Shown here piece by piece: positions 27,381 to 57,183 of a DNA stretch of 64,000 nucleotides. The notes beneath the pieces are model-generated. The model did no database searches. It worked only from the letters and a program-made list of their open reading frames with translations, and was not told where the DNA came from. Numbering within the stretch: the stretch's first letter is position 1; every line of letters begins with the position of its first letter. The stretch comes from Escherichia coli (GTDB lineage: Bacteria; Pseudomonadota; Gammaproteobacteria; Enterobacterales; Enterobacteriaceae). The translations under genes and the position numbers were made by a program. The stretch lies in assembly GCF_013122565.1 (NCBI RefSeq), contig NZ_CP053258.1; one strand, written 5' to 3'.

Positions 27381-27743
27381 TGGTGGAGCTGGCGGGAGTT
27401 GAACCCGCGTCCGAAATTCCTACATCCTCGGTACTACATGCTTAGTCAGTCTTTACATTCGCTTGCCAGCTGCGGACGGACACGCCACTAACAAACTAGC
27501 CTGATTAAGTTTTAACGCTTCAACCCCAGGCAGGGCTTCCACGCGATCTCTTTTGGGTTTGACCTCTCTTGATCCCCGTCCTAAGAGCGGAGGCTAGGGA
27601 GAGAGGGCTCTAAGCAGGTTATTAAGCTGCTAAAGCGTAGTTTTCGTCGTTTGCGACTATTTTTTGCGGCTTTTTACGAGGCCAACCGCCCCTCGGCATG
27701 CACCTTGGGTTTCGCAAATCCCGTCGAATCCAGAATCAGCCCC
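27381..27743 (-). ncRNA. ssrA: tmRNA (SsrA), 363 nt
   Basis: Reverse complement reads GGGGCTGATTCTGGATTCGACGGGATTTGCGAAACCCAAGGTGCATGCCGAGG … and contains the tag reading frame GCAAACGACGAAAACTACGCTTTAGCAGCTTAA (ANDENYALAA*) and the tRNA-like 3' end …GGGTTCAACTCCCGCCAGCTCCACCA. Confidence 0.96.
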
Positions 27744-45612: not shown

Positions 45613-45642
45613 ATAAAAAAGGCCCCCCGATTTGGGAGGCCT
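45613..45642 (-). terminator. pheA attenuator terminator
   Basis: Minus strand reads ggcctcccaaatcggggggccttttttatt: GC-rich hairpin plus U-run between pheL and pheA. Confidence 0.8.
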
Positions 45643-45689
45643 TATTGTTCGTCTTCGCATTCTGTTTCACACGACGAAACGCCTCCCAT

Positions 45690-45737
45690 TCAGGGGAAGG
45701 TAAAAAAGAATGCGAAGAAAAACGGTGTGTGTTTCAT
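45690..45737 (-). CDS. pheL: pheA leader peptide PheL (15 aa, Phe-rich)
   Basis: Minus-strand atgaaacacacaccgtttttcttcgcattcttttttaccttcccctga gives MKHTPFFFAFFFTFP*; 7 of 15 codons are Phe. Confidence 0.85.
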   Translation of the reverse strand: MKHTPFFFAFFFTFP

Positions 45738-45840
45738 GTTTGTTTCCTTAAGTGACTTTAGTACAGTACCCGTACTGTTTTCACGCTGTCAACAAAAAAC
45801 GCGCCCGAAGGCGCGTTGGCGATACACTCAATATAAAGGA

Positions 45841-46236
<396 letters not shown>

Positions 46237-48305: not shown

Positions 48306-49033
48306 GTAAGCTGATTGTCCCGCAGTGGCCGCTGCCAAAAGGTGTTGCGGCCTGTAGCTCTACTCGTATCGGCGGCGTGAGCTTGCCCCCGTATGACTCG
48401 CTCAACCTCGGTGCTCATTGTGGCGATAATCCGGATCACGTTGAGGAGAATCGCAAGCGACTTTTTGCTGCGGGCAATTTGCCTTCTAAACCGGTCTGGC
48501 TTGAGCAGGTACACGGCAAAGATGTGCTTAAGCTTACTGGCGAACCTTATGCCTCAAAACGAGCAGATGCCTCTTATAGCAATACGCCCGGCACGGTTTG
48601 CGCAGTGATGACTGCCGACTGCCTCCCTGTGCTGTTTTGCAATCGAGCGGGAACGGAAGTCGCCGCCGCTCATGCTGGTTGGCGTGGACTGTGCGCAGGC
48701 GTGCTGGAAGAGACGGTTTCCTGTTTTGCTGATAATCCGGAAAATATTCTCGCCTGGTTAGGGCCGGCAATTGGTCCACGCGCGTTCGAAGTGGGGGCGG
48801 AGGTTCGCGAGGCGTTTATGGCAGCAGACGCCAAAGCGAGTACAGCTTTCATTCAGCATGGTGATAAGTATCTGGCAGATATTTATCAGCTTGCCCGGCA
48901 GCGTCTGGCGAGCGTTGGTGTTGAACAAATTTTCGGCGGCGACCGTTGTACATATACGGAAAATGAGACTTTCTTCTCTTATCGTCGCGACAAGACCACC
49001 GGTCGTATGGCAAGTTTCATTTGGCTGATATAA
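48302..49033 (+). CDS. pgeF: Laccase-domain / purine nucleoside phosphorylase-like protein YfiH (PgeF)
   Basis: 243-aa ORF; ATGA overlap with rluD stop. Confidence 0.88.
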   Translation: MSKLIVPQWPLPKGVAACSSTRIGGVSLPPYDSLNLGAHCGDNPDHVEENRKRLFAAGNLPSKPVWLEQVHGKDVLKLTGEPYASKRADASYSNTPGTVCAVMTADCLPVLFCNRAGTEVAAAHAGWRGLCAGVLEETVSCFADNPENILAWLGPAIGPRAFEVGAEVREAFMAADAKASTAFIQHGDKYLADIYQLARQRLASVGVEQIFGGDRCTYTENETFFSYRRDKTTGRMASFIWLI

Positions 49034-49095
49034 CCTAAAGAATCAAGACGATCCGGTACGCGTGATTTTCTTTTCACATTAATCTGGTCAATAAC

Positions 49096-49124
49096 CTTGA
49101 ATAATTGAGGGATGACCTCATTTA
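49096..49124 (+). promoter_or_regulatory. Sigma-32 heat-shock promoter of clpB
   Basis: cttgaa (49096-49101) -N14- cctcattta (49116-49124); matches sigma-32 consensus CTTGAA…CCCCATNT. Confidence 0.7.
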
Positions 49125-49162
49125 ATCTCCAGTAGCAACTTTGATCCGTTATGGGAGGAGTT

Positions 49163-51736
49163 ATGCGTCTGGATCGTCTTACTAATAAATTCCAGCTTGC
49201 TCTTGCCGATGCCCAATCACTTGCACTCGGGCACGACAACCAATTCATCGAACCACTTCATTTAATGAGCGCCCTGCTGAATCAGGAAGGGGGTTCGGTT
49301 AGTCCTTTGTTAACATCCGCTGGCATTAATGCTGGCCAGTTGCGCACAGATATCAATCAGGCATTAAATCGTTTACCGCAGGTTGAAGGTACTGGTGGTG
49401 ATGTCCAGCCATCACAAGATCTGGTGCGCGTTCTTAATCTTTGCGACAAGCTGGCGCAAAAACGTGGTGATAACTTTATCTCGTCAGAACTGTTCGTTCT
49501 GGCGGCACTTGAGTCTCGCGGCACGCTGGCCGACATCCTGAAAGCAGCAGGGGCGACCACCGCCAACATTACTCAAGCGATTGAACAAATGCGTGGAGGT
49601 GAAAGCGTGAACGATCAAGGTGCTGAAGACCAACGTCAGGCTTTGAAAAAATATACCATCGACCTTACCGAACGAGCCGAACAAGGCAAACTCGATCCGG
49701 TGATTGGTCGTGATGAAGAAATTCGCCGTACCATTCAGGTGCTGCAACGTCGTACTAAAAATAACCCGGTACTGATTGGTGAACCCGGCGTCGGTAAAAC
49801 TGCCATCGTTGAAGGTCTGGCGCAGCGTATTATCAACGGCGAAGTGCCGGAAGGGTTGAAAGGCCGCCGGGTACTGGCGCTGGATATGGGCGCGCTGGTG
49901 GCTGGGGCGAAATATCGCGGTGAGTTTGAAGAACGTTTAAAAGGCGTGCTTAACGATCTTGCCAAACAGGAAGGCAACGTCATCCTGTTTATCGACGAAT
50001 TACATACCATGGTCGGCGCGGGTAAAGCCGATGGCGCAATGGACGCCGGAAACATGCTGAAACCGGCGCTGGCGCGTGGTGAATTGCACTGCGTAGGTGC
50101 CACGACGCTTGACGAATATCGCCAGTACATCGAAAAAGATGCTGCGCTGGAACGTCGTTTCCAGAAAGTGTTTGTTGCCGAGCCTTCTGTTGAAGATACC
50201 ATTGCGATTCTGCGTGGCCTGAAAGAACGTTACGAATTGCACCACCATGTGCAAATTACTGACCCGGCAATTGTTGCAGCGGCGACGTTGTCTCATCGCT
50301 ACATTGCTGACCGTCAGCTGCCGGATAAAGCCATCGACCTGATCGATGAAGCAGCATCCAGCATTCGTATGCAGATTGACTCAAAACCAGAAGAACTCGA
50401 CCGACTCGATCGTCGTATCATCCAGCTCAAACTGGAACAACAGGCGTTAATGAAAGAGTCTGATGAAGCCAGTAAAAAACGCCTGGATATGCTCAACGAA
50501 GAACTGAGCGACAAAGAACGTCAGTACTCCGAGTTAGAAGAAGAGTGGAAAGCAGAGAAGGCATCGCTTTCTGGTACGCAGACCATTAAAGCGGAACTGG
50601 AACAGGCGAAAATCGCTATTGAACAGGCTCGCCGTGTGGGTGACCTGGCGCGGATGTCTGAACTGCAATACGGCAAAATCCCGGAACTGGAAAAGCAACT
50701 GGAAGCCGCAACGCAGCTCGAAGGCAAAACTATGCGTCTGTTGCGTAATAAAGTGACCGACGCCGAAATTGCTGAAGTGCTGGCGCGTTGGACGGGGATT
50801 CCGGTTTCTCGCATGATGGAAAGCGAGCGCGAAAAACTGCTGCGTATGGAGCAAGAACTGCACCATCGCGTAATTGGTCAGAACGAAGCGGTTGATGCGG
50901 TATCTAACGCTATTCGTCGTAGCCGTGCGGGGCTGGCGGATCCAAATCGCCCGATTGGTTCATTCCTGTTCCTCGGCCCAACTGGTGTGGGGAAAACAGA
51001 GCTTTGTAAGGCGCTGGCGAACTTTATGTTTGATAGCGACGAGGCGATGGTCCGTATCGATATGTCCGAGTTTATGGAGAAACACTCGGTGTCTCGTCTG
51101 GTTGGTGCGCCTCCGGGATATGTCGGTTATGAAGAAGGTGGCTACCTGACCGAAGCTGTGCGTCGTCGTCCGTATTCCGTCATCCTGCTGGATGAAGTGG
51201 AAAAAGCGCATCCGGATGTCTTCAATATTCTGTTGCAGGTACTGGATGATGGGCGTCTGACTGACGGGCAGGGGAGAACGGTCGACTTCCGTAATACGGT
51301 TGTCATTATGACCTCTAACCTCGGTTCCGATCTGATTCAGGAACGCTTCGGTGAACTGGATTATGCGCACATGAAAGAGCTGGTGCTCGGTGTGGTTAGC
51401 CATAACTTCCGTCCGGAATTCATTAACCGTATCGATGAAGTGGTGGTCTTCCATCCGCTGGGTGAACAGCACATTGCGTCGATTGCGCAGATTCAATTGA
51501 AACGTCTGTATAAACGTCTGGAAGAACGTGGTTATGAAATCCACATTTCTGACGAGGCGCTGAAACTGCTGAGCGAGAACGGTTACGATCCGGTCTATGG
51601 TGCACGTCCTCTGAAACGTGCAATTCAGCAGCAGATCGAAAACCCGCTGGCACAGCAAATACTGTCTGGTGAATTGGTTCCGGGTAAAGTGATTCGCCTG
51701 GAAGTTAATGAAGACCGGATTGTCGCCGTCCAGTAA
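49163..51736 (+). CDS. clpB: Disaggregase chaperone ClpB (AAA+)
   Basis: Start at [34 protein letters not shown]… (857 aa); two Walker A motifs ([16 protein letters not shown]). Confidence 0.96.
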
Positions 51737-52179: not shown

Positions 52180-53721
<1,542 letters not shown>

Positions 53722-53806
53722 CCTTAAAGAAGCGTTCTTTGAAGTGCTCACACAGATTGTCTGATAGAAAGTGAAAAGCAAGGCGTCTTGCGAAGCAGAC
53801 TGATAC

Positions 53807-53882
53807 GTCCCCTTCGTCTAGAGGCCCAGGACACCGCCCTTTCACGGCGGTAACAGGGGTTCGAATCCCCTAGGGGACGCCA
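53807..53882 (+). tRNA. gltW: tRNA-Glu (anticodon UUC) in 16S-23S spacer
   Basis: GTCCCCTTCGTCTAGAGGCCCAGGACACCGCCCTTTCACGGCGGTAACAGGGGTTCGAATCCCCTAGGGGACGCCA; anticodon loop CT-TTC-AC. Confidence 0.95.
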
Positions 53883-54066
53883 CTTGCTGGTTTGTGAGTG
53901 AAAGTCACCTGCCTTAATATCTCAAAACTCATCTTCGGGTGATGTTTGAGATATTTGCTCTTTAAAAATCTGGATCAAGCTGAAAATTGAAACACTGAAC
54001 AACGAATGTTGTTCGTGAGTCTCTCAAATTTTCGCAACTCTGAAGTGAAACATCTTCGGGTTGTGA

Positions 54067-56970
<2,904 letters not shown>

Positions 56971-57063
56971 ACAACGCCGAAGCTGTTTTGGCGGATTGAG
57001 AGAAGATTTTCAGCCTGATACAGATTAAATCAGAACGCAGAAGCGGTCTGATAAAACAGAATT

Positions 57064-57183
57064 TGCCTGGCGGCCTTAGCGCGGTGGTCCCACCTGACCC
57101 CATGCCGAACTCAGAAGTGAAACGCCGTAGCGCCGATGGTAGTGTGGGGTCTCCCCATGCGAGAGTAGGGAACTGCCAGGCAT
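57064..57183 (+). rRNA. rrfG: 5S ribosomal RNA (120 nt)
   Basis: TGCCTGGCGGCCTTAGCGCGGTGGTCCCACCTGACCCCATGCCGAACTCAGAAGTGAAACGCCGTAGCGCCGATGGTAGTGTGGGGTCTCCCCATGCGAGAGTAGGGAACTGCCAGGCAT. Confidence 0.96.

Follow-up and report, generated by a model that had tools for sequence, protein, structure and literature searches.

The gap between yfiH and clpB in the stretch of Escherichia coli DNA analysed here (64,000 nt, referred to below as the window) probably holds two transcription units, one nested in the other and both read in one direction: the small RNA RyfD, produced as a primary transcript from a promoter of its own and independent of the clpB leader, and the clpB unit, whose sigma-32 promoter lies inside the loop of RyfD. 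RyfD and the clpB sigma-32 promoter are both already known objects, the former since 2005 and the latter since 1991, and clpB itself is a member of the RpoH regulon. The nesting, the constraints on codons and promoter spacer, and the co-conservation with lpp described below are useful but modest additions and do not make up a new kind of system. More tentatively, and with slightly less than an even chance that all of its parts hold jointly, we propose that the shared DNA encodes a promoter-selective switch, the RNA gene dictating synonymous codon choice in clpB codons 2–6, the last yfiH codon and the sigma-32 spacer, and that RyfD and the 5' end of lpp mRNA form a co-evolving pair that was lost jointly in the Providencia/Moellerella/Proteus clade. 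The positions of the features discussed are listed in Table 1.

Table 1. Features of the yfiH-clpB region, in window coordinates.
Feature	Position	Strand	Remarks
Proposed RyfD promoter, extended -10 TGaTATAAC	49026..49034	+	Overlaps the last yfiH codons and stop (CTG ATA TAA)
RyfD small RNA, 143 nt	49041..49183	+	143/143 identical to K-12 ryfD b4609
5' arm of closing helix P1, AAGACGAUCCGG-U-ACGCGUGAUUU	49045..49068	+	MFE pairing
sigma-32 -35 of clpB, CTTGAA	49096..49101	+	Also 5' half of a small RyfD hairpin
sigma-32 -10 of clpB, CCTCATTTA	49116..49124	+	N14 spacer to the -35
RyfD segment UUAAUCUCCAGUAGC	49122..49136	+	Complementary to lpp mRNA nt 1-16; contains anti-SD CUCC 49127-49130
Expected start of sigma-32 clpB mRNA	49130..49132	+	Inferred from promoter geometry (-10 ends at 49124)
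3' arm of P1	49158..49180	+	3' part of clpB SD, spacer, AUG 49163-49165, codons 2-6
clpB CDS	49163..51736	+	857 aa from ATG at 49163

The assignment of the window to E. coli was confirmed with a 401-nt query around the site, which was 100% identical to many complete genomes and was found in 5425 of 5426. In the window, yfiH ends with its TAA at 49031-49033 and the clpB start codon begins at 49163, leaving a gap of exactly 49034-49162. A first-pass annotation had described a good sigma-32 promoter in this gap, and the description was borne out. The sequence CTTGAA-N14-CCTCATTTA fits the sigma-32 consensus CTTGAAA / CCCCATnT, having a -35 of the CTTGAA(A) type and a CCCCATnT-like -10 separated by a distance within the 13-15 bp range, directly upstream of a heat-shock gene, and it is the sole match in the 64 kb when both strands are searched with up to one mismatch (0.11 expected by chance). 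The -35 was invariant in all 106 aligned Enterobacterales sequences, and the -10 was 98% conserved in the same set. The clpB leader had been put at ~40 nt; the promoter geometry instead predicts an expected leader of ~31-33 nt. On the opposite strand, an 89-aa open reading frame (48979..49248) was rejected, as it is absent from the K-12 annotation and has no support.

The same annotation had pointed, as something to check, to a small RNA, RyfD, reported next to clpB in K-12, and this location too proved to be right. The ryfD gene of K-12 MG1655 (b4609; 2734153..2734295, on the clpB strand) maps to this gap and not elsewhere, and an Rfam scan matched RF02768 (Ysr155_RyfD) to 49044-49182 (+) over model positions 1-140 of 140, with 125.3 bits against a gathering score of 42. 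Since its sequence is identical to that of K-12, and its flanking genes, strand, length and ends also agree, the RNA of the window is the same RNA as RyfD/Ysr155. PGAP-annotated E. coli genomes omit ryfD. The RNA starts 7 nt past the yfiH stop, at a point that precedes the sigma-32 -35 by 55 nt and the expected sigma-32 start by ~90 nt, and its last 21 nt belong to clpB, so that it covers the whole sigma-32 promoter together with the clpB leader; the stretch that is common to RyfD and the sigma-32 clpB mRNA is limited to 49131-49183. The other Rfam matches in the window were StyR-44 (53960-54059, +), which lies in the rRNA operon that follows clpB, with the 16S/tRNA genes on one side and the 23S gene on the other, and the rRNA genes (52180-57181, +), tmRNA (27381-27743, -) and the pheL leader (45613-45738, -), all of which are expected in a K-12-like region.

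Published data agree with both ends. Table S2 of Kim 2012 gives a transcription start at the annotated ryfD 5' end that was seen by three genome-wide methods, including enrichment for 5'-triphosphates, and that carries neither an 'inside' nor an 'upstream' flag; the K. pneumoniae orthologue listed there is also 143 nt long. The Cappable-seq supplement has no entry at this position. In the Term-seq entries extracted from Adams 2021, a 3' end lies exactly at K-12 2734153, which corresponds to window position 49183, with average reads of 2.65e7 and 7.4e7, compared with 1e3-1e5 for other entries in that extract and up to 3.5e6 for a tRNA end. The Yersinia pestis orthologue, Ysr155, is a 138-nt RNA in the same context that has been validated by northern blotting, is constitutive with respect to temperature and is independent of hfq. 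In Salmonella, RyfD is among the most abundant RNAs that co-immunoprecipitate with ProQ, and in the ProQ RIL-seq literature it is termed an 'abundant ProQ-associated sRNA'. SEC-seq detected neither an ORF in RyfD nor an association with ribosomes.

The proposed promoter is an extended -10 element, TGaTATAAC, the last base of which lies 7 nt before A49041. It has no recognisable -35, and a sigma-70 promoter scan of the gap, which demands a -35, called no promoter. The element was spotted by reading the sequence and was then tested by conservation; as 8-base motifs of this kind occur a few times per 64 kb by chance, the evidence for it consists of its position and its conservation. It is present in 87 of the 95 species that have the 5' arm of RyfD and in none of the ten that lack the arm. 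It can also be seen in the codons of the overlapping gene: the terminal Ile of YfiH is encoded by ATA, a rare codon, in 69/69 species, another Ile three codons before it is ATC or ATT in 101/105, and the terminal Arg, where present, is AGA or CGA in 18/20. Codon choice at the end of YfiH (49028-49030), like that in clpB codons 2-6 (49166-49180; see below), thus appears to be dictated by the overlapping RNA gene, and these constraints vanish where RyfD is missing.

The 143-nt RNA has a predicted minimum free energy of -52 kcal/mol (z = -5.6). In the MFE structure it is closed by a helix of 23 bp, P1, in which 49045-49056 pairs with 49169-49180 and 49058-49068 with 49158-49168, and inside which the anti-SD CUCC pairs with the clpB SD GGAG at 49154-49157. 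Both ends of RyfD lie 3-4 nt outside P1, the 3' end being 3 nt past the base of the helix. A small hairpin (TGAGG-GATGA-CCTCA, followed by TTTAATCTCC) at 49106-49120 (+), which was flagged by a terminator scan, overlaps the sigma-32 spacer and -10 and is in competition with the CCUUGA/UUGAGG hairpin predicted for RyfD. It probably belongs to the internal structure of RyfD and is not a terminator.

To follow this structure across species, we scanned one genome per species with a pattern for the ClpB N-terminus only, a search that is unbiased with respect to the spacer, and obtained 120 loci. The yfiH-clpB synteny holds among them, and the spacer measures 119-135 nt in almost all Enterobacterales. 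In an alignment of 106 Enterobacterales sequences (A1), with pairing counted over the 105 distinct ones, 88.5% of cells were paired for P1 and 93.8% for the anti-SD helix, compared with 37-46% for slid controls; the small hairpin of 49095-49100 with 49105-49110 was paired in 94.9%. In the 5' arm, A->G opposite U accounts for most changes; the resulting G.U wobbles are compatible with an RNA from the + strand and not with DNA or the - strand. Third positions in clpB codons 2-6 are near-fixed (103, 105, 100, 104 and 99 of 106) as CGT CTG GAT CGT CTT, a series that includes the non-preferred Leu codon CTT, whereas those in codons 7 and 8 are free to vary (61/42/3 and 72/34). Few changes are strictly compensatory, one being found in Erwinia (L040 and L074), where GAT->GAC is accompanied by A->G in the 5' arm; most changes of P1 pairs affect one side only, since the SD, the AUG and the coding sequence hold the 3' arm fixed. 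An RNAalifold solution in which GACCUCAU pairs with AUGCGUC and replaces the inner half of P1 was set aside as uninformative, all of its columns being invariant for other reasons.

The arm is absent at the aligned position in ten species, namely Providencia and Moellerella, Rosenbergiella, L013/L086 and L078, a set that represents only about four independent lineages. Synonymous sites in clpB codons 2-6 were changed in 8 of these 10 species and in 6 of the 96 that bear the arm, and the duplex between the arm and the clpB start region fell from -30.4 +/- 2.8 kcal/mol where the arm is kept to -10.6 where it is lost. In the heat-shock promoter, the identity of the sigma-32 spacer drops from 0.89 in RyfD-bearing lineages to 0.51 in those without the arm, that of the -10 is 0.98 in RyfD-bearing compared with 0.82 in RyfD-less lineages, and the -35 stays at 1.00. 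Compared with an ordinary sigma-32 promoter, therefore, the spacer and the adjoining downstream segment of the clpB promoter are conserved far beyond what sigma-32 needs, and since this is confined to RyfD-bearing lineages, we attribute it to an additional constraint from the overlapping RNA gene.

Scanning with RF02768 at the Rfam threshold gave a split similar to that between species with and without the arm. The family was present in Serratia, Photorhabdus, Xenorhabdus, Acerihabitans and Pantoea, and it stayed below threshold in Providencia, Moellerella, Morganella, Rosenbergiella, Edwardsiella, Ferrimonas and Orbaceae. Two weak passes, L013 3002-3170 and L078 8105-8239 (54 and 60 bits), have neither the 5' arm nor the promoter. 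Roughly half the RF02768 model consists of the conserved clpB promoter and leader, so weak matches are no proof of the sRNA, and the scores of L013 and L078 must come from this part of the model. As these two pass Rfam, we also tried the idea that the arm had moved into yfiH (the TGRMAS codons) in the lineages that have lost it, with duplexes of -19 to -26 kcal/mol; this was rejected, as the pairing is just as strong when the intergenic arm is present (-21.0 versus -19.8) and is near chance (-16.5 +/- 3.3). The pairing of yfiH 48985-49015 (...TGRMAS) with 49157-49183 is a built-in duplex of ~-20 kcal/mol in all species, independent of the presence of RyfD, because CGN-ATG (Arg-Met) is nearly the reverse complement of ATG-CGN (Met-Arg). 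At the edges of the family's distribution are Edwardsiella (L037, L083), with a longer yfiH-clpB spacer of ~170-176 nt and no RF02768 match, and Ferrimonas (L070, L111) and L082, with short spacers of 54-77 nt.

We then considered what RyfD might do in trans. A 2025 TRIC-seq preprint describes a strong and specific contact of RyfD that is focused on the lpp 5'UTR, and RaiZ, according to a review of ProQ RIL-seq data, is connected with lpp as well as with RyfD. RyfD 49122-49136 can form 15 bp with nt 1-16 of lpp mRNA (GCUACAUGGAGAUUAA), with one bulge, at a predicted -21.6 kcal/mol or ~-13 after opening costs. Duplexes were scored in local windows against a natural-sequence background of 128 kb; an unrestricted RyfD-lpp duplex was discarded as meaningless, as the whole molecules were zipped together. 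In the background only the antisense strand of the locus itself beats -21.6, but a few windows reach ~-21, so the lpp duplex is meaningful as a test of a named target and not as a genome-wide prediction.

That duplexes of ~-21 kcal/mol arise by chance in 128 kb is also what might be expected if RyfD had no trans target at all, being a by-product of an insulating structure whose contacts with lpp are chance meetings of hyper-abundant RNAs. The lpp mRNA is extremely abundant, as is RyfD judging from Term-seq, a situation that favours proximity ligation; the seed overlaps elements that are conserved for other reasons (the sigma-32 -10 and the anti-SD); and a ryfD deletion was among those with the fewest interactions in a genetic-interaction screen. 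We nevertheless consider this explanation unlikely, as the comparison of lpp 5'UTRs argues against it. The lpp site is kept in Klebsiella, Serratia, Erwinia, Photorhabdus, Xenorhabdus and Arsenophonus; outside Xenorhabdus only the bulged position varies, and in Xenorhabdus there is one change on each partner, with wobble pairs kept both times. Within the Morganellaceae, to which Photorhabdus and Xenorhabdus belong, the lpp 5' end has diverged in Providencia, Moellerella and Proteus, and in Providencia and Moellerella the lpp site, the RyfD arm and the RyfD promoter are all absent. Matched-species duplexes reach ~-24 kcal/mol in the six genera, compared with -10.7 in Providencia and -8.3 in Moellerella, and segment 49122-49136 has an identity of 0.99 in RyfD-bearing and 0.79 in RyfD-less lineages. 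The focus of the TRIC-seq contacts on the lpp 5'UTR likewise speaks against chance encounters.

RyfD therefore shows the conserved complementarity to a target mRNA, here lpp nt 1-16, that characterises base-pairing sRNAs, and it may act in trans by pairing through 49122-49136 with the very first nucleotides of lpp mRNA, a reading that the preprint contacts support. The joint loss of the RyfD and lpp sites amounts to one clear event, and on these comparisons the case for trans pairing is suggestive but not conclusive. Like RaiZ-type ProQ sRNAs, RyfD is highly structured, Hfq-independent and an abundant ProQ ligand with proposed pairing near the 5' end of its target mRNA. It differs from RaiZ in being a primary transcript and not a 3'UTR fragment, and in having a long-range panhandle and not a compact terminator hairpin, and its outcome on lpp is only putative. 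We note that raiA (113 aa; 45841-46182, -), the 3'UTR sRNA of which is RaiZ, lies 3 kb from RyfD, so that two ProQ sRNAs tied to lpp share one neighbourhood, RaiZ being placed here via raiA only.

The predicted accessibility of the clpB start differs according to where the RNA begins. The probability that the AUG is unpaired is 0.01-0.02 in RNAs starting at 49041 or in yfiH and ~0.6 in those from the sigma-32 start, and the SD is predicted to be unpaired at ~15% in the former and at ~40% in RNAs from 49129-49131. We propose that RyfD would be transcribed constitutively from the extended -10 that overlaps the yfiH stop codon and would fold into a panhandle, the 23-bp helix of which hides the clpB SD, AUG and codons 2-6, while the inner CUCC takes up what remains of the SD. 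Transcripts that begin at the RyfD promoter or farther upstream would be ended or trimmed at 49183, and any read-through would be untranslatable; sigma-32 transcripts from ~49131, being without the 5' arm and the anti-SD, would present an open ribosome-binding site. If the helix acts as a promoter-selective lock of this kind, as the folding predictions lead us to infer, neither RyfD nor yfiH read-through RNA could make ClpB, and ClpB synthesis would depend on initiation by sigma-32.

The end at 49183 has a terminator-like geometry only (AAGA, a G+C-rich stem and UCUUACU), lying 7 nt past the G+C-rich CUGGAUCG. Only 4 of 8 positions are T in the 3' tail TCTTACTA, the RNA reading UCUUACU(A) past the helix, and P1 closes an 89-nt multibranch loop; a canonical intrinsic terminator would have a compact hairpin and at least 5 U in 8. 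A terminator scan did not call this site and found no canonical terminator between yfiH and clpB. Coverage downstream relative to upstream of 49183 is 0.35 without BCM and 0.45 with it, with a Rho score of 1.28, which indicates substantial read-through and at most a minor role for Rho. The end could arise either by weak factor-assisted termination or by trimming to a helix protected by ProQ.

Read-through of this order, with ~35% of coverage remaining downstream, and the sense overlap with the 5' end of clpB would also suit a RyfD that is the terminated product of a regulated leader (an attenuator, riboswitch or thermosensor) belonging to a second, sigma-70 promoter of clpB. Heat-shock genes often have RNA thermometers, and RyfD resembles the ROSE and fourU types in placing the SD and AUG in a helix upstream of a heat-shock gene. 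Here, however, the heat-shock mRNA itself lacks the helix, which moreover stays closed over the physiological range: predicted AUG accessibility is unchanged from 30 to 50 C, the arm-bearing RNAs keep their unpaired probability of 0.01-0.02 throughout, and the AUG is still 98% paired at 50 C, so a thermometer was rejected. A regulated leader in general, a possibility that the Y. pestis authors had raised, is improbable, as neither arm turned up a conserved alternative partner (the one candidate, in yfiH, being at chance level), the coverage downstream of 49183 also includes sigma-32 transcripts, and the level of the Yersinia RNA is constitutive with temperature. RyfD does resemble sRNAs derived from 5'UTRs or attenuation, such as the riboswitch leaders SroA/thiB and SroG/ribB and the 5'UTR RNAs of Adams 2021: they too overlap the 5' part of a gene in the sense direction, and their 3' ends are sharply defined and fall shortly before the ORF or shortly within it. 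SroA- and SroG-type RNAs, however, share the promoter of the mRNA, with a signal picking the short or the long form, whereas RyfD and the clpB mRNA each have a promoter of their own, served by a different sigma factor, and that of the mRNA is nested within RyfD.

That RyfD is a stable, nuclease-trimmed remnant of rluD-yfiH read-through is an explanation that we regard as very improbable, even though ends 3-4 nt outside a 23-bp helix are what exonuclease-resistant remnants would have and the gap has no canonical terminator. A 23-bp duplex is long enough to be a substrate of RNase III, but that enzyme would leave ends inside the helix, and those of RyfD are outside. Furthermore, the start site was seen with enrichment for 5'-triphosphates, the extended -10 has an exact position, is retained despite codon preference and disappears along with the arm, and 1e7 Term-seq reads would be hard to obtain from a modestly expressed upstream operon.

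Finally, the first-pass annotation had suggested a small RNA derived from the clpB leader, that is, a 5' fragment of the heat-shock mRNA from the sigma-32 start. The original screen for RyfD reportedly cloned short RNA fragments. The two RNAs do share 49131-49183 on the same strand, and a ~53-nt RNA from the sigma-32 start to 49183 could exist as a minor species, but as an account of RyfD this can hardly be right, since the annotated 143-nt RNA has its own transcription start at 49041 by three methods and its own conserved -10 and thus does not share the start of the mRNA as a leader-derived sRNA would, the 138-nt RNA of Y. pestis is not temperature-dependent, and an RNA from 49131 would be without the arm that defines the 49183 end.

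For annotation, RyfD is best shown as a gene in its own right, with the clpB heat-shock promoter inside it, and not as a fragment of the clpB leader. For genetics, any ryfD deletion or seed mutation also affects the clpB promoter and start region, and Keio-type clpB deletions take the 3' arm of RyfD with them. In E. coli, RyfD ranks among the most abundant small RNAs and is a leading ProQ ligand. Its co-conservation with the lpp 5' end provides independent comparative support for the one RyfD target proposed so far, and the nesting of the two units suggests a simple way in which a constitutive promoter could be stopped from leaking into a heat-shock gene.
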